DNA of 45,624 nt, taken from assembly GCA_033193195.1 (NCBI GenBank), contig GCA_033193195.1_4326.1; one strand, given 5' to 3'. The position numbers and the translations under genes were made by a program. Below are positions 1 through 45,624 of this stretch, in pieces (position 1 is the first letter of the stretch; each line of letters begins with the position of its first letter). The stretch is from a phage. Under the pieces are notes generated by a model that was given only the letters and a program-made list of their open reading frames with translations, had not been told where the DNA came from and ran no database searches.

Positions 1-24
1 AAAAAAACGAGAGAGGATTTCAAA

Positions 25-696
25 ATGGTTGTTTGGTCTTTATTTGATGGTTCAGGGCTGGCTGTGAAAGATTGGGCTGAGGCTGGTCACTAGTGCTACT
101 GTTTCAACTTTGATGAGTCTGACCACGGTAGTTACGGGGATTTAAATGCAAAATTTGAACATGAGAACATCACCTACGTTAATGCCTGGATAGATGGCAA
201 CTTCGACTTTGATGTGAAGCCTGATATCATTTTAGCGTTCCCGCCGTGTACGGATTTAGCCGTGAGCGGGTCAAGGCACTTTGAGCGAAAGCGACTGGTT
301 AACCATAACTTCCAGATTGAAGCTGCGGATACATGTAAAGTTGCTTTTAACTTGGCTAATAAGTACGAAGTCCCATACATGATTGAGAATCCAATCAGCG
401 TACTGTCATCACTCTGGAGAAAGCCTAATAAGACTTTCCACCCATATGAATACGGAGGCTATTTGCCGGAAGATGATTTACACCCGTTTTTTAGCGACCT
501 AATAAAGCCAAGAGACGCATATCCTAAGAAGACATGCATTTGGTATGGCAATGGGTTTAAATGGCCAGAGGCGATTCCTGTGGACGTTAACGATGGATTC
601 TCTGACCAATACAAGAAGCTTGGTGGGAAGAGTAAGAAGACAAAGGTAATTCGCAGTCTAACTCCTCGCGGTTTTGCAAAAGCAGTCTTCATAGCA

Positions 697-714
<18 letters not shown>
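25..714 (+). pseudogene. DNA (cytosine-5) methyltransferase-like gene interrupted by in-frame TAG at 91..93
   Basis: ATG 25 preceded by GAGAGG; N-term MVVWSLFDGSG (motif I-like), then TAG at codon 23, same frame continues to AFPPCTDLAVSG (PC motif IV-like) and MIENP (ENV-like); track ORF 214..714 is the downstream part. Confidence 0.5.
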
Positions 715-1012
<298 letters not shown>

Positions 1013-1013
<1 letters not shown>

Positions 1014-22571: not shown

Positions 22572-22647
22572 TGGTGTTCCGCACTGGACTCGAACCAGTA
22601 ACTAAGACTTAGGAGGTCTTTGCGTTATCCTGTTACGCCAGCAGAAC
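22572..22647 (-). tRNA. tRNA-Arg (anticodon CCU, decodes AGG)
   Basis: 76 nt cloverleaf by hand: acceptor GTTCTGC/GCGGAAC (one G-U), D stem GCGT/ACGC with GG loop, anticodon stem AAGAC/GTCTT, loop CTCCTAA, T stem ACTGG/CCAGT, T loop TTCGAGT, encoded CCA. Confidence 0.8.
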
Positions 22648-34939: not shown

Positions 34940-36649
34940 TTAATCCTCCATCGTGAATGATTTGTTGGCGATAATGTCTTGAGACTTCTGGTTTTTACGG
35001 TGTGTGATTCTCAATGGGGCACGGAATAGATGTGCATTTGTCATAATCATTCTAGCATTACGCAATCTGCCAATTCTGAATGCCTCAGTCCTGTTATCGA
35101 TGTGTGTTAAGCAGAAAGCCTTCCATTTAACAGAGCAAACGCGATGGTCTGATTCAGGGAAGAATGTTTCATAAGCTCGGAACTTATCTCCACTATGAGC
35201 CATTACCTCATATGAAGCAACGATCCCTGACTGGTTCTTTGTTAACCCAATCTTGAAGTCATAAACTCGCAACCAGTCCCCCTTACGATACATTTTTCCT
35301 GATAACTTAGCATTCGGGTCTATGAGCATCTCACCACAGCATCTGCAATTCTTAGCTGCAATATCATTCTTCTCACCGCATCCTTTCTTAATGATAGCTT
35401 TGGTCTGTGGGTCCACTATATCTTCACACAGTCTAAACTGAAAGAAGTGCTCACAGCGCTTCCCGTCAATTACGTTATTGCAGCGCCTGGCTAATGGAGA
35501 GTTCACATAAGAGCATGCCTGACAGATTCTTGGCTCACCAACACGCTTTCTTGCTGACCTAAATTTCTGGTCTTGTACCTCTTCTATAATTGGGTCGAAG
35601 TAAAGTTCAGCCATATCATCAAGCGTTCCAGCAAAATCAAGAACAACATGGTCATCTTTTACCATTCCAGCTTCTTTGTGCTTCTTCTTAAGGATACGCA
35701 TACCACGACCAAGCAACTGAATGAGTAGAGTAATGCTACCAACCTTCCTCAGGATAATGCTTGTATCCCACGGGGGGCAGTTTACGCCAGTTGTGAGGCA
35801 ACCAATCTGAAATATGAACTTATATTCTCCGTTGGCTGCCTTCTCAAGTATCTCTCTACGCTTATTCTCACCAGTGGAGTTGGTAACTATCGCCCAAGTA
35901 ACACCTTCTGGAAGTGCGGCTGCCGCCTCCTCGCAATGCTGTTTGCTAGCGCAAGTTACCAATGCAGCATTCCTTGTTTCCATAAACCTAGCAGCAAATC
36001 CCATTATCTTTTGTGTCATCGTTTGGTTTTCGTGAATCTTTGCAGCCATCGCATCCATTTCTTTCTTGCTGAAGTCCTTAACCCCATCACTTCCATCAGG
36101 AGTGAACTCACTAAGGTCGTAGCCCAAATCACCAACTTCACCGTAGACAGTAGGAACAACGAACCCCAAGTCAACAAGGTAGCTGGTTGGCACTTGCATT
36201 ACAGTTTTGCGCCAGAATCCACGGACATTTGGGTTACTAACTACAATGTGGTCGTTGTTACGGTACGGGCTACCAGTTAACCCAAAGATACGAAGTTCGC
36301 GACCGTACTTCTCCTTGCATCGACGCTTCATTTCGGTAATGATTAACGTGTATTGCGCGCGACCAGTGCCAAGAAGCCCGGTATTCACACCATCCTTAAA
36401 GACCATCTCACCCTTCTTCGTGCTCATCTGCTCGAATGTTTCCTCATTCTCTTCAGCTTCTACGATATCCATATGGTCCACCATGTGGCAATTATGTGCC
36501 ACGACCCCGTCAGCAATGAAATTATGGTGCTCAGGCATCTCTATATCCCAAACAAGTTCCTTGCCAATGGGTGAGATGTCTTTAATTTTGCTTGATTTTG
36601 TATTCCACGCCATTTTACATGTGCTTACTAATTCTCTTAAAAAACTCAT
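34940..36649 (-). CDS. SF2 helicase C-terminal fragment preceded by intein C-terminal splicing segment
   Basis: N-term ..ELVWDIEMPEHHNFIADGVVAHN then CHMVDH; helicase motifs LTGSP and QLLGRGMR; C-terminal Cys-rich zinc-finger-like region; ATG 36649 with GAGG upstream. Confidence 0.75.
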   Translation of the reverse strand: MSFLRELVSTCKMAWNTKSSKIKDISPIGKELVWDIEMPEHHNFIADGVVAHNCHMVDHMDIVEAEENEETFEQMSTKKGEMVFKDGVNTGLLGTGRAQYTLIITEMKRRCKEKYGRELRIFGLTGSPYRNNDHIVVSNPNVRGFWRKTVMQVPTSYLVDLGFVVPTVYGEVGDLGYDLSEFTPDGSDGVKDFSKKEMDAMAAKIHENQTMTQKIMGFAARFMETRNAALVTCASKQHCEEAAAALPEGVTWAIVTNSTGENKRREILEKAANGEYKFIFQIGCLTTGVNCPPWDTSIILRKVGSITLLIQLLGRGMRILKKKHKEAGMVKDDHVVLDFAGTLDDMAELYFDPIIEEVQDQKFRSARKRVGEPRICQACSYVNSPLARRCNNVIDGKRCEHFFQFRLCEDIVDPQTKAIIKKGCGEKNDIAAKNCRCCGEMLIDPNAKLSGKMYRKGDWLRVYDFKIGLTKNQSGIVASYEVMAHSGDKFRAYETFFPESDHRVCSVKWKAFCLTHIDNRTEAFRIGRLRNARMIMTNAHLFRAPLRITHRKNQKSQDIIANKSFTMED

Positions 36650-37629
36650 CTTGTGCCGACCTCGTTGTTATTGATACTGAGTAAAGCTCTCTCTTTTTCT
36701 TGCCGCAAATATAGCTTATAACCTTAACTCCGTCATTAGCAATAAATGCTATTAGCGCATCAACTACTGATTGAACTTCACGCCTGCTAAATGATTCGGT
36801 GTGGATTTCTACAACCCTCCCCCCTGAGCTTACAGTGCAATGACCATCATCACCAAAGTAAGCAGCCCAACCAACTGGATCAAGCTCTCTGCATATCTTT
36901 CCAATATCGTAACCATCCTTAGAATTTCCGTACTTATCAGCATATGAATCCAGAACTTTCGTACATGATGTTGATACGCAAAACCAGTTGTCGCCAAATC
37001 CAGGGTTTTTCTTCTCCCTGTATCTAGGGTTTAGTTTTGCAAACCTTTCAACCTTGCTTAGTGCGTGCTCCTTATTTCCATATTCCAAGATAGCCTATGC
37101 GTTCCTTTTTCTGTATTTTTAATCAAGCAACCATCACCAGCCATTGCCGCAAGAATGTTTTGATGTAAAAAGTCATCAACCTCCATTTATGGGTTGACGG
37201 TTGAATTATGATGCCCCGTTCTGTAATCCAAATAGAAATCGAAAGGGTTCTTAAGAAGTACGCCTAACCCCTTGCTTGAATGCGGCATAACTTTTTCACC
37301 ACAGCCACACTTGCACGCAGAAGCTTTTTCGTAAATTTGTCCTGCGAGCCGTCTAGCGACAGATTCATCCCAATACGAAGTTTTCCCGCTTCTACCCAGC
37401 AGCCGTTCGAATAAAGTTTGTGTGTACTCGTGCATTTTATTTCCTCTCCGCTTTCTAATTTAATTGATAATACATGTCTTACACCATTAGTAAAAACTCT
37501 TTTTGGCTTATGATAGAAGTAATCACCAGTGCTTTCGTTTATGCATTTTATTTTATGATTGATAAGGTCTTCGCTATCAATCCTCATCATCCCTGAATCG
37601 GTGGTTATCATCGTGTCTCCAGTTAAGCA
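36491..37629 (-). other. intein inserted in helicase DECH motif; LAGLIDADG endonuclease core disrupted
   Basis: blocks CLTGDTMITT and CTSTHKL..W in N-extein frame; ILAAMAGDGC and WAAYFGDDGHC in two other frames; in-frame TAA 37187..37189; length 1139 bp is not a multiple of 3. Confidence 0.7.
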
Positions 37630-38073
37630 CTCATCTATCGCGATAACAGCAGGAGCATAGTCACCAAGCCCCTTAAACAAGCCGTTAGCAGCCGTTCCCT
37701 CACTAGCCACTATGGTTGGATAGTAAACTGATTTAACGTTAAGGCCAGCGCAATAGACGCTATTACGGATGCCGAAATTACGAAGTTCCTCTGCGTTCTG
37801 GCTGATAATCTCTGACTGGCGAGATAGGACCATGTAAGGAAGGCCAAGCTGTTCCATTCGTTTCCCAATCATGGCGAGTATAATTGTCTTACCAGCAGAC
37901 ACCGACAGGTCTGCGATGAATGGCGCTTCGTACTTGCCAATAGCCTTACCGATTGCGTCAAATGTCACGCACTGGAATTCGTAAGGCGTTATGTCTCCAA
38001 ACTGGTAATCTTTCTGAATCTGTTTAATTTTCTCTTTATCAAAGTTCGCCACTAAGCGCTCTACTGGAAGCAT
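37264..38073 (-). CDS. SF2 helicase N-terminal fragment fused to intein N-terminal splicing segment
   Basis: Walker A SVSAGKT, ..VIAIDE then CLTGDTMITT; stops 121 codons into intein. Confidence 0.75.
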   Translation of the reverse strand: MLPVERLVANFDKEKIKQIQKDYQFGDITPYEFQCVTFDAIGKAIGKYEAPFIADLSVSAGKTIILAMIGKRMEQLGLPYMVLSRQSEIISQNAEELRNFGIRNSVYCAGLNVKSVYYPTIVASEGTAANGLFKGLGDYAPAVIAIDECLTGDTMITTDSGMMRIDSEDLINHKIKCINESTGDYFYHKPKRVFTNGVRHVLSIKLESGEEIKCTSTHKLYSNGCWVEAGKLRIGMNLSLDGSQDKFTKKLLRASVAVVKKLCRIQARG

Positions 38074-38694: not shown

Positions 38695-39174
38695 ATGAAC
38701 TGGCATGATTATTTTTACTATGTAGATGGCAAATTGCATTGAAAGATTAGCACTGCAAGACGTGTTAAGGTTGGCGATGAGTGCAACTCACTATCTACAT
38801 CTGGCTATTACAAAGTGTCTGTTAATGGCTTTAGGACTTATGTACATAGAGTTGTGTGGGAGATGTTTAATGGAGAACTTCAAAATGGCGACTACATTGA
38901 TCATATAAACCATAACAAATTAGATAACAGAATAGAAAACCTAAGAGTAACAACAAATCAAGGTAACTCAAGAAATTGCAAGCTTAGCGTTTTATCAACA
39001 ACTGGTTATTGTGGAGTGGCAAAGCTAAATCACGGAAAATTTAAGGCTTACATCAAGGTTGACGGCAAGCAGCTACACCTTGGTAACTTCGATACTCCAG
39101 AGCAGGCGTATAAAGTAAGAATTGAAGCAGAGAGAAAATACAACTTTCACGAAAATCACGGTTTAAGCAAATGA
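38695..39174 (+). pseudogene. HNH-AP2 homing endonuclease-like gene with in-frame TGA at 38740..38742
   Basis: MNWHDYFYYVDGKLH-stop-KISTARRVKVGD (Trp expected in G.L.WK motif); HRVVWEMFNGEL..DHINHNKLDNRIENLR HNH; YCGVAKLNHGKFKAYIKVDGKQLHLGNF AP2-like; GGGAGA SD. Confidence 0.65.
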
Positions 39175-42744: not shown

Positions 42745-43176
42745 TCAGAATGGAATATCTCCGTCGAATGTGTTTTGCTGTTGTGGTTGTTGCTGTTGCT
42801 GTTGCGGTTGATGGCGCTGTTGTTGCTCTGTATTTTTATGTTGCTGTACACCATCACCACGCTGACTAAACTCAAGACGAGGATTGTTCATGTTAATTGT
42901 TATGTAAGTCTTGCCATCTTTATCTCGAACATCTAATGCTAACGTCTCACAACTTACGCTAACAATCTTCCCTTCCTGAAACGCCTCGTTATACCATGCA
43001 AGCATTGATTCCTTTGCGAAGAAGACGGCACGATAGTTGCTATACTGAGATTGACCATCTTTATCCTTGTAACGCTCACTTAAATCAACCGCGTACATCT
43101 TCCAACTTCCATTTGCATTCTGACCTTCTTTAGTGAAAGGAGCGCGACGGATAACACCAGTGATTACATGACTCAT
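42745..43176 (-). CDS. single-stranded DNA-binding protein
   Basis: OB-fold-like N-terminal half, Gln/Pro-rich linker, acidic C-terminal tail DGDIPF. Confidence 0.8.
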   Translation of the reverse strand: MSHVITGVIRRAPFTKEGQNANGSWKMYAVDLSERYKDKDGQSQYSNYRAVFFAKESMLAWYNEAFQEGKIVSVSCETLALDVRDKDGKTYITINMNNPRLEFSQRGDGVQQHKNTEQQQRHQPQQQQQQPQQQNTFDGDIPF

Positions 43177-43216
43177 TTTCTTTCTCTCTTAATGTTGGGG
43201 CCGCAGCCCCGTTAAA

Positions 43217-43867
43217 TTAGAATGTGTCGATTTCTTGAGATTGCACTTCAACTTTTTCTTCTTGAACAGACTTTTGTGCAACCTGTTTAGGTTTTGCAGG
43301 ATTGAAGCCGTTAGTTGCATTAGCCTGAATCTCTGCCTTACGCTCAATAATGTGAGGCTCAAGCACTAACCAGCCGGCTGGATCAAGTGACTGCTTCGCC
43401 TCTTTGTAAACATCACGGAGGTCATCAAGAGTACTGCACTTAGCCAAGTCTTTCTTGAATGAGTTGATGCCTTTAACTGCTAACTGACCATCATCATCTG
43501 CCTGGCTTAAACCTAACGCCGCTGTGATTGCGTAACGGCGAGCGTATGTAAGTGATGACCCATAACCTTGAGCATCTTGCTTACTGATTGGGACGATTGT
43601 CAGGAAGCTAACCCACTCCCCAGACTCTGCGTGATAAACGGTTGTTTCAACCTTAATACGAGTGCTTACATCATCATCAATCATCGACTGAAACATCACC
43701 AGTCCGCTATCAGCCAAGCCTGGCTCTACAGCTGCTAAAACATCATCTAAAGTAGCGTACTTATTCTTGAGGTGTGAGTTCTGCTTAGACTTTTCAGCCT
43801 TAGCAAACTTTGATTTAGCCTCGAATAACGCCTTCAATACTTGCTTGTTTTGCTCAGAAGTTTTCAT
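43217..43867 (-). CDS. Erf-like single-strand annealing protein
   Basis: start 43867 downstream of predicted start site; central region typical of Erf-type annealases by eye. Confidence 0.5.
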   Translation of the reverse strand: MKTSEQNKQVLKALFEAKSKFAKAEKSKQNSHLKNKYATLDDVLAAVEPGLADSGLVMFQSMIDDDVSTRIKVETTVYHAESGEWVSFLTIVPISKQDAQGYGSSLTYARRYAITAALGLSQADDDGQLAVKGINSFKKDLAKCSTLDDLRDVYKEAKQSLDPAGWLVLEPHIIERKAEIQANATNGFNPAKPKQVAQKSVQEEKVEVQSQEIDTF

Positions 43868-43897
43868 TCCCCATCTCTCTTTCGTTTCGATGGGGTA

Positions 43898-43944
43898 ATG
43901 ATACCCCACCTGTTAATTTTGTCTTTAGCAATTAGTGCTATTTT
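43898..43944 (-). promoter_or_regulatory. family promoter for annealase/SSB unit
   Basis: minus-strand AATAGCACTAATTGCTAAAGAC, TATCAT, CATCGAAACGAAAGAGAG. Confidence 0.6.
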
Positions 43945-44909
43945 AGAAGTTCTTGATACTGCTTACTTACCCACTCAGGAATCATCAAATCTTGCTCTGT
44001 AATCCCATTGCTATACCCAGGCCATACATCAAGCTTCTTGCACTGTTTGTATGTTGCTAGTGCCTCTAAATATTGTAAGCGCCCAATGCGAAGCTGCTCA
44101 TCCGTAAGCGTGTAGCACATAGGTAAGTAAGGCTCCGTTTTTTCCTGCACCAGAAGTCGAGCCACAACCTTACGCTTCTCGCTGAATGCCTTCACAAACA
44201 AATCACGCTGAAGGCTCATCTTGCAAAGGTATCCATGGTCATAAGCCGACTTACCAAATCCTCTAGGACTTGCATCTGCTGTGGTTTTGTAGTCATGGAT
44301 ATAGACAACGCCATCAACAACATCTACGTGATCAAGCCTAACCTTAACACCACACCCAAGAATCTCACCAAAGATTGATAGCTCTTTCTGTGCTGTTGGT
44401 GAGTTAATAATCGCATCGTAAGCTGGGATATTAGTCAGAACCTCGCGCATTGAGATTACCTTATCGTAATCTTTCGCAGTAACGAGCTCTTTGCCACTAA
44501 TTAACGCCTTAGCGCTCTCCTGCTGCTCAATTAACCATTTAACAGGCCAATCCTCACCAGATTTATACATCATCTCCACGAGCTCGCTATATCCCTTCCC
44601 TGACGTGCCTGAAACTCCAACTTTTTTAAGCGCTGCGGATAAAGCCGTTTGGCTAGTAATCAATCCTTCCACTTCGTCAAAGTCAGTAGCTCGCATGTAT
44701 GTTGAGTCAAACACCTCGCGCTCTAGCATCATGCAGTGACTTAGTGTGCCAAACTTAAGTGCTGCGCTAGAGTTATTGAGCTGCTTAAACTTCCATTTAG
44801 CTGGTGAGGTAGCAAGAATCTCAGCCAGTGAAGAGCCAGAGATATGGTCTTGCTCTTCGTGATATGATTCATTTGTTAGCTCGTCGTTCGTATAAACTTT
44901 AAATGTCAT
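43938..44909 (-). CDS. recombination exonuclease (PD-(D/E)xK-type)
   Basis: D..VYIHDYKTT core; paired with annealase and SSB. Confidence 0.5.
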   Translation of the reverse strand: MTFKVYTNDELTNESYHEEQDHISGSSLAEILATSPAKWKFKQLNNSSAALKFGTLSHCMMLEREVFDSTYMRATDFDEVEGLITSQTALSAALKKVGVSGTSGKGYSELVEMMYKSGEDWPVKWLIEQQESAKALISGKELVTAKDYDKVISMREVLTNIPAYDAIINSPTAQKELSIFGEILGCGVKVRLDHVDVVDGVVYIHDYKTTADASPRGFGKSAYDHGYLCKMSLQRDLFVKAFSEKRKVVARLLVQEKTEPYLPMCYTLTDEQLRIGRLQYLEALATYKQCKKLDVWPGYSNGITEQDLMIPEWVSKQYQELLK

Positions 44910-44912
44910 GGT

Positions 44913-45107
44913 TCAATCCTTAATTTTAACAATCTTAATAGCTTTCAAATCTTCTTCAGTGAAGTATCCTGTCAGCAACTCCTTGGCCTCTTCCTTTGTC
45001 TCGAATTGGTCGGCTTCAGATTTGTTGGTAGTGTATCCAGCGGGGCCACCAAAGTAGCAATCGCCGAACAGTGCGTTGTTTTTCTCTTTAATAATGAAGT
45101 ATGGCAT
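44913..45107 (-). CDS. hypothetical protein, first gene of leftward unit from control region B
   Basis: 64 aa; TTGGAC..ATCATT promoter-like and ATCGAAAGCACGC leader upstream. Confidence 0.45.
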   Translation of the reverse strand: MPYFIIKEKNNALFGDCYFGGPAGYTTNKSEADQFETKEEAKELLTGYFTEEDLKAIKIVKIKD

Positions 45108-45572
45108 TTCTCTATCTCTCTATTTTTGCGTGCTTTCGATTAGTTAATGATGCCGCACGCAAGACACACAGTCCAATTGGTATCACCGATTAATTAATCA
45201 AGTATACGCGTATAAATCCGTAACTACGTGTAGACATTGCCATTAGTTACGTTTTTCACCACTTCAGCCCAGCTATAGCTCAATGTAAATAGTGCGTATA
45301 CCGTGTATACCGATTTTTGCGGAGGGTGCATAGGTATATGCGCCACGCAATACTGTATAAAATCACATTATATAAAAATTATAACCGGAACACTCCAGAA
45401 CAGTAGTTACATGATATACACAGTAATATATATAATAATAATAATAAGAGTAAATGGTTGATATATATAGATATTATTATGTAACTATGGCGTATCAAAG
45501 CGTAACTAGGCGTATACGATTTCCCGCTGATGCATATGGTATACATAGAGTTACATCGGTTACGCGTAACCA
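45108..45572. promoter_or_regulatory. control region B: AT-rich noncoding divergent-promoter region paralogous to region A
   Basis: same conserved blocks as 25380..25650; palindrome GGTTACGCGTAACC at 45558..45571. Confidence 0.6.
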
Positions 45573-45615
45573 ACAGCACGAATAGCTAAAACTAATCCGC
45601 AAAACCATGTATAGT
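45573..45615 (+). promoter_or_regulatory. family promoter at window end, oriented toward window start
   Basis: AACAGCACGAATAGCTAAAAC, TATAGT 45610..45615. Confidence 0.5.
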
Positions 45616-45624
45616 TGGTCACAC

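Follow-up and report, generated by a model that had tools for sequence, protein, structure and literature searches.

In the stretch of phage DNA analysed here (45,624 nt in full, referred to below as the window), a reading frame opened by an ATG at position 25 is interrupted by a TAG at 91-93 and then remains open to a TAA at 712-714, and the question raised by this locus is whether the interrupted gene has been lost recently, has been misread during sequencing, or is expressed in spite of its stop codon. These three explanations had been offered by a sequence-only reading of the locus, which had also described the ATG at 25 with its Shine-Dalgarno sequence, the TAG and the same frame continuing to 714, all of which were confirmed in the sequence. 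The 22 sense codons ahead of the amber codon are MVVWSLFDGSGLAVKDWAEAGH, and a further 206 sense codons lie between the TAG and the TAA. When read through the TAG, the ORF, which is that of a methyltransferase, comprises 229 codons and is collinear with intact homologues of 229 aa.

The interrupted gene and its protein family

The window spans a complete circular genome, the two ends of which join seamlessly in the 45,654-bp Logan contig DRR502069_167, and from its matches the phage is classed as a T1-like E. coli siphovirus of the Drexlerviridae, of Braunvirinae type. Over most of the genome the best GenBank matches are phages ES and AN_ECEAS (about 89-92%), both of which belong to the Drexlerviridae/Braunvirinae, and over the first 1.1 kb they are JeanPiccard, AugustePiccard, and BEK2; a search of E. 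coli complete genomes and plasmids returned no match. Closer relatives were reached through contigs that encode an identical neighbouring 64-aa protein. Two of these contigs, SRR28073326_17961 (L190) and DRR162437_16429 (L191; 45,621 bp), derive from unrelated runs and carry the same intact 229-codon gene with 96.6-96.7% DNA identity to window positions 1-760. The features of the interrupted gene are as follows:

13..17, plus strand: Shine-Dalgarno sequence GAGGA, read from the sequence, 7 nt 5' of the ATG and kept in intact relatives
25..90, plus strand: translatable first 22 methyltransferase codons, including the AdoMet-binding motif I, identical in the intact L190 and L191
91..93, plus strand: premature amber TAG (E23amber), G>T at 91 relative to the GAG of the closest relatives
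94..714, plus strand: untranslated remainder of the gene, 206 sense codons and the TAA, otherwise intact (from the sequence and the homologue alignment)

The conserved methyltransferase motifs fall on both sides of the stop. Motif I, FDGSG, occupies codons 7-11 (nt 43-57) 5' of it, and the catalytic PPC (codons 73-75, nt 241-249), the ENP (codons 121-123, nt 385-393), and a KK pair at nt 526-531 are all located 3' of it, which upholds the earlier claim that the amber codon sits between the AdoMet-binding motif and the catalytic PC motif. The earliest in-frame start beyond the amber codon is a GTG at 214, and because no in-frame start precedes it, the amber allele is a null allele. Stop-start re-initiation at a GTG overlapping the TAG (93-95) was also considered and was rejected, as this codon is out of frame and opens an ORF of only six codons.

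Positions 25-714 are assigned to the phage "Dcm-like" family, as a gene for a compact C5-cytosine DNA methyltransferase of DNMT3-like type, because of the motifs, the fold, and the homology to a characterised relative, the match to Pfam PF00145 lying below the gathering threshold (14.6 bits against 22, E 0.022) and covering the N-terminal 90 residues only; a precomputed PF00145 match exists for a few family members. The protein matches phrog_757 "DNA methyltransferase" (E 4e-86), and an NCBIfam search and a PDB sequence search with the methyltransferase gave zero matches. FDGSG is invariant in 120 homologues, and PPC and ENP are invariant in the family. An AlphaFold model of an 89%-identical homologue (P0001; pLDDT 88.3, pTM 0.87) was compared with the PDB by Foldseek, and the top 49 matches were the catalytic domains of DNMT3A, DNMT3B, and DNMT3C, the best being those of DNMT3A and DNMT3B (E about 3e-6, probability 1.0, TM 0.4-0.54). 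Aligned with KarlJaspers bas06_0055 over its full length, the window protein shows 58% identity (E 1e-95), with window residues C75, E121, K168, and K169 aligning with KarlJaspers C82, E128, K175, and K176. The methyltransferase-like identity proposed from the letters of the sequence is therefore borne out by phrog_757, the motifs, the modelled fold, and the homology to KarlJaspers. The family is large: the protein collection contains at least 1,996 of its clusters, and there are homologues in 1,528 GenBank phage records, 1,466 of which hold a near full-length protein.

With the eukaryotic DNMT3A and DNMT3B (PDB 6F57, 2QRV, and 8TE1, among others) the phage protein has motif I, the PC catalytic loop, and an ENV-type motif in common, but the sequence identity is only 12-18%, and the phage protein, which is shorter by about 50 residues, lacks both regulatory domains and a partner subunit. 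Chemistry like that of E. coli Dcm and the other bacterial C5-methyltransferases of PF00145 would be expected, although the window enzyme (about 229 aa) is much smaller than E. coli Dcm and is not accompanied by a Vsr partner gene.

Origin, reality and age of the amber codon

Within positions 1-136 the window differs from L190 and L191 at a single site, position 91, at which both relatives have a G and consequently a GAG codon (Glu) in place of the TAG, and because this is the sole mismatch the stop arose by one G>T transversion, E23amber. In the GenBank relatives with 84-86% identity codon 23 is ACT or ACA (Thr), three bases away from TAG, and among 120 homologues residue 23 is T in 69, K in 23, S in 6, D in 6, E in 4, and Q in 4. 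The homologue alignment that the sequence-only reading had proposed as a guide to the expected sense codon therefore gives Glu (GAG) for the nearest relatives, whereas those further away have Thr or Lys. Two other origins were considered. A three-base substitution was dropped, as the closer relatives read GAG, and with dS at about 0.8 each comparison is expected to contain one to three codons that differ at all three bases. Similarly, a 5-methylcytosine deamination hotspot (CAG to TAG at CCAGG) was ruled out, since the ancestral codon is GAG and the context is not CCWGG.

Apart from the stop, the gene has the character of an intact one. The dN/dS against intact homologues is 0.05-0.10, equal to that among the intact homologues themselves, and 3 of 100 highly conserved columns deviate in the window as compared with 0-4 in intact controls; on inspection, the deviating I124 and S157 are common to the JeanPiccard clade and H94 is common to L190 and L191. 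Ten synonymous and ten missense codon differences, in addition to the stop, distinguish the window from L190 and L191, and by comparison with the outgroups six of the missense changes fall on the intact L190/L191 lineage and the other four on that of the window. Functional relatives have the same Shine-Dalgarno sequence and upstream promoter motif as the window. Secondary decay in the form of more stops, frameshifts, or a raised dN/dS was sought in the gene and none was found, from which it follows that the mutation is recent. The "recent inactivation" of the earlier reading is thus well supported, with a GAG in the closest relatives that is one base from TAG and the remainder of the gene undecayed; as far as can be judged from sequence comparison, the lesion is recent, or later decay has yet to follow.

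The same TAG allele occurs base for base in Logan contigs of two runs, namely DRR502069_167, which covers the whole genome and is 100% identical across the TAG, and DRR502114_66146 (2,949 bp), which is 100% identical to window positions 42867-45624 and 1-191; the runs DRR502069 and DRR502114 apparently belong to one project series and are possibly not fully independent, and the allele is known from assemblies. Exact-pattern scans for the TAG allele in IMG/VR and a metagenome collection found none, and scans with NNN at codon 23 returned only ACT alleles and chance matches. A sequencing or assembly error, by which the true codon at 91-93 would be a sense codon (GAG) and the gene intact, would be compatible with a change of a single base relative to the closest relatives and with support that comes from assemblies, not reads, but it is very unlikely given that the identical TAG was assembled from both runs, and with it the base-call error suggested by the sequence-only reading. 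In addition, the 166-aa ORF downstream of the stop is also recorded from an ENA source, and the homologues of annotated AN_ECEAS genes elsewhere in the window have no internal stops, the stops met in that comparison being in unannotated frames or upstream of annotated starts, which argues that the assembly is not generally error-prone. Deliberate construction of an amber mutant was also weighed because the TAG makes the only SpeI site of the genome (ACTAGT) within an 8-bp palindrome, CACTAGTG, each of the two sequences occurring once in the genome, at the stop, and because codon 23 differs at all three bases from the 84%-identical GenBank relatives. This explanation deserves next to no credence, since a single G>T separates the allele from its nearest relatives (CACGAGTG to CACTAGTG), the flanking CAC...GTG accounts for the palindrome, and the contig indices 167, 66146, and 75377 are those of large multi-contig assemblies, which resemble environmental or gut metagenomes and not a cloned construct.

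Expression in spite of the stop could occur either through the TAG or from a start beyond it. The sole tRNA of the genome is a tRNA-Arg(CCT), which reads AGG and is encoded on the minus strand at 22572-22647 (ARAGORN and Rfam agree), and an Rfam scan of the genome found no family besides it. TAG terminates 8 of 51 long ORFs, including those of the terminase large subunit and an exonuclease VIII-like protein; reading TAG as sense raises the coding coverage only from 83.5% to 87.4%, with a similar gain when TGA or TAA is read as sense. A TAG at codon 23 was found in none of 120 proteins, 80 IMG/VR loci, and the DNA relatives. With no suppressor tRNA and with TAG as an ordinary terminator, programmed suppression is unsupported, and the suppression-dependent expression entertained earlier falls with it, the stop not being conserved in relatives. 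A leakier version, in which a low level of read-through gives some enzyme and could hold the Dcm dose under a defence-triggering threshold, draws on the intactness of the remaining gene and its expression signals and on the variability of residue 23 (T, K, S, D, E, Q), at which insertion of Gln, Tyr, or Lys would probably leave an active protein; as the residue is permissive, any read-through product would probably be active, and an amber-suppressor laboratory host would probably restore active enzyme. Trace near-cognate read-through of UAG may occur. Leaky or suppressor-dependent expression is nevertheless improbable in a high degree, for the genome lacks a suppressor tRNA, TAG is the genuine stop of those 8 long genes, no relative has an amber at codon 23, and a U follows the stop, which is an efficient termination context in E. 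coli; moreover, the intactness of the gene is equally explained by a young mutation. Translation of the 166-codon ORF alone, from GTG 214 to 714, as a functional N-terminally truncated protein is harder still to credit. Gene callers annotate a 166-aa product here because GTG 214 is the first in-frame start after the TAG, and the annotation of phage MM01 is a 190-aa N-terminally truncated version, but the 166-codon product would lack motif I and the entire first beta-alpha-beta unit of the Rossmann fold (from the modelled secondary structure) and would for that reason be predicted to be unable to bind AdoMet normally. Furthermore, no purine run resembling a Shine-Dalgarno sequence was seen ahead of GTG 214, this codon is a plain internal Val in intact homologues, and over 1,400 of the phage homologues have the full length. 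What the window holds is, with high probability, a real and recent null allele (E23amber), produced by a single G>T change in a Dcm-like methyltransferase gene that forms a dispensable cassette of a T1-like phage.

A repeated, probably promoter-associated motif and the methyltransferase cassette

The gene is bracketed by two copies of a 19-bp motif, AATAGCAC-NNN-TTGCTAAA, which contains the inverted repeat TAGCA-N5-TGCTA and is present in 16 copies in the window as compared with 0.06 expected by chance. In the usual layout the motif is followed about 22 nt downstream, at fixed spacing, by a -10-like hexamer, and then by a CATCGAAACGAAA-type leader, a Shine-Dalgarno sequence, and a start codon, an arrangement from which we infer that the motif is promoter-associated. 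The palindrome is centred near -42 and looks like the binding site of a dimeric regulator in the position of a class-II activator, and not like a -35 box. In the literature that could be searched, no paper contains the motif sequence. The copies and the features of the cassette are listed below, each motif copy in the first two lines being given by the 5'-most base on its own strand, which for minus-strand sites is the larger coordinate:

697+, 11941-, 19825-, 23527-, 24664-, 25887+, 26852+, 27632+ (strand by sign): copies of the 19-bp motif
31100-, 32187-, 34523-, 36753-, 38158-, 40159-, 43942-, 45572+ (strand by sign): remaining copies of the motif
45572..45590, plus strand: upstream motif copy AACAGCACGAATAGCTAAA, left edge of the methyltransferase cassette (motif scan)
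45610..45615, plus strand: -10-like TATAGT, putative methyltransferase promoter, read from the sequence, with the spacing seen at other copies
697..715, plus strand: second motif copy, overlapping the last codons and stop of the methyltransferase gene, right edge of the cassette (motif scan)
736-741, plus strand: -10-like TATGAT, which with the motif at 697-715 makes a putative promoter of the next gene
783..1013, plus strand: phage lipoprotein gene, PF24052 (profile match), with promoter-like signals of its own

With promoter-like signals of its own, the lipoprotein gene may escape polar effects of the nonsense codon. A generic scan for sigma-70 promoters and terminators around the gene gave nothing above background, with no terminator between the methyltransferase and lipoprotein genes.

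At the corresponding position ES and AN_ECEAS possess a single motif copy without a methyltransferase gene, in contrast to the two copies of the window, which fits gain or loss of the cassette through recombination between motif copies. On this comparison the methyltransferase gene is classed as an accessory, dispensable promoter-plus-gene cassette bracketed by two motif copies. The sequence of 18-19 bp that the 3' end of the methyltransferase gene and the region preceding the gene have in common with ES was also considered as a "gene remnant" or deletion scar, and this was rejected, as it is the promoter-associated motif with its 16 copies and ES keeps the promoter of the lipoprotein gene.

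Motif copies also bracket gene cassettes in JeanPiccard, BEK2, A110b, and AugustePiccard. The genes bas02_0026 of JeanPiccard and bas01_0030 of AugustePiccard, "Dcm-like C5 cytosine methyltransferase" in the BASEL collection, form an orthologous cassette, and both encode 229 aa. The order common to these two phages and the window is the exonuclease VIII side, methyltransferase, lipoprotein, DUF6453, and J-like tail tip. Their genes have 84-86% DNA identity to the window, and the proteins about 91% when the window gene is read through its stop; both are uninterrupted, with Thr (ACT) at codon 23 where the window has TAG.

The right edge of the cassette differs between the window and its closest relatives. 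Positions 697-741 read AATAGCACGAATAGATAAA ... TATGAT in the window and AATAGCACCAATTGCTAAA ... TATCAT in L190 and L191, and these changes also turn the last residue of the methyltransferase from Cys into Arg. The C-terminal end of the methyltransferase is thus tied to the promoter of the gene next to it.

Elsewhere in the genome, the DNA helicase gene is split (34940-38073, minus strand). A first ORF of 269 aa (38073..37264), which ends in TAG, encodes the N-terminal part and the N-terminal half of an intein (DEC|LTGDT..., positions 17-88 of the Intein_splicing profile), and a second ORF of 569 aa (36649..34940) encodes the C-terminal half of the intein (...VVAHN|C, profile positions 117-155) followed by Helicase_C. 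Between the two halves, in other frames, are an 82-aa ORF and a 157-aa ORF with a near-threshold match to LAGLIDADG_2. The same split of the helicase is present in the annotation of AN_ECEAS. This arrangement resembles a "fractured gene" in which a split intein is combined with a free-standing homing endonuclease; a decayed intein is the alternative. In addition, two ORFs of AN_ECEAS are 32-41% identical to positions 38695-39162 (plus strand), where the window has an in-frame stop, and one of the two is annotated as "homing endonuclease" (44521-44997); this region may be a decayed copy of a homing-endonuclease gene.

Loss of the methyltransferase and its possible meaning

The change of G to T at position 91 converts Glu-23 (GAG) into an amber codon and ends translation after 22 residues, so that of the conserved elements only AdoMet motif I is made and the catalytic Cys75, Glu121, and Lys168/169 are never translated. 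The phage would then presumably no longer methylate its own cytosines. Such a loss may be neutral or of low cost in dcm+ hosts, and it may be favoured on hosts with methylation-sensing abortive infection of the retron Ec86 (Eco1) type.

The latter possibility comes from phage K42, whose genome is 95.4% identical to that of KarlJaspers and whose 711-bp dcm gene encodes a product that methylates the stem-loop of retron Ec86 msDNA and thereby triggers defence, 5-methylcytosine on the msDNA having been reported by LC-MS (10.1101/2023.08.16.553469). The residues mutated in the study of the K42 enzyme are C82, E128, K175, and K176, and its CCWGG specificity is an assumption of the retron study (10.1101/2023.08.16.553469); the window contains 74 CCWGG sites. 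In all four of four phages that escaped Ec86, dcm was disrupted or down-regulated, the lesions including a 2.2-kb deletion, a 1-bp deletion leading to a premature stop, and a point mutation 9 bp upstream of the dcm start (10.1101/2023.08.16.553469). The window protein and the Dcm of K42 and KarlJaspers (Bas06) belong to one family and have the catalytic Cys, Glu, and Lys-Lys in common at aligned positions, and both phages are Drexlerviridae, but the window phage is Braunvirinae-like and KarlJaspers is a Hanrivervirus, and the methyltransferase gene of the window has a different genomic position from that of KarlJaspers, adjoining the tail-tip gene module. As in the laboratory escapers, the window gene has been lost through a small lesion that gives a premature stop; the window allele, however, is a natural nonsense mutation known from assemblies, whereas the K42 escapers were selected in the laboratory.

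Other lesions of the gene are found among relatives. For example, codons 1-17 are missing in MM01, frameshifts occur near codon 28 in Salmonella phage PRF-SP4 (OL773676.2) and near codon 90 in Enterobacter phage N5822 (MW032452.1), and an IMG/VR genome (IMGVR_UViG_2974595650_000001) has a TAA at codon 61 (about 1678-1680); some of these four lesions could be sequencing errors in the deposited genomes. No simple link was found between the methyltransferase genes of Drexlerviridae and resistance to restriction (Maffei et al., 2021; PMC8594841), which agrees with a methyltransferase gene that is dispensable in many settings.

E23amber is an ordinary young pseudogene in a gene family that is already known, and the null allele itself is new. 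For annotation, the appropriate label is that of a Dcm-like methyltransferase pseudogene (E23amber) in place of a 166-aa hypothetical protein, and the phage is predicted to be without cytosine self-methylation. An adaptive reading, in which a wild lineage, known from two sequencing runs, escapes Dcm-sensing abortive infection of the Ec86/Eco1 type by inactivating the anti-restriction methyltransferase that it encodes ("trigger loss"), is suggested by analogy with the escapers and is possible, albeit rather unlikely; if it were true, the variable presence of the cassette across Drexlerviridae would record the same arms race. The window provides a clean, natural, and very young null allele in the gene family identified in the laboratory as the Ec86 trigger, together with intact sister alleles that are 96.7% identical, and this pair of TAG and GAG alleles offers material for testing natural trigger loss and for measuring what phage Dcm costs and what it brings against restriction systems and retrons.
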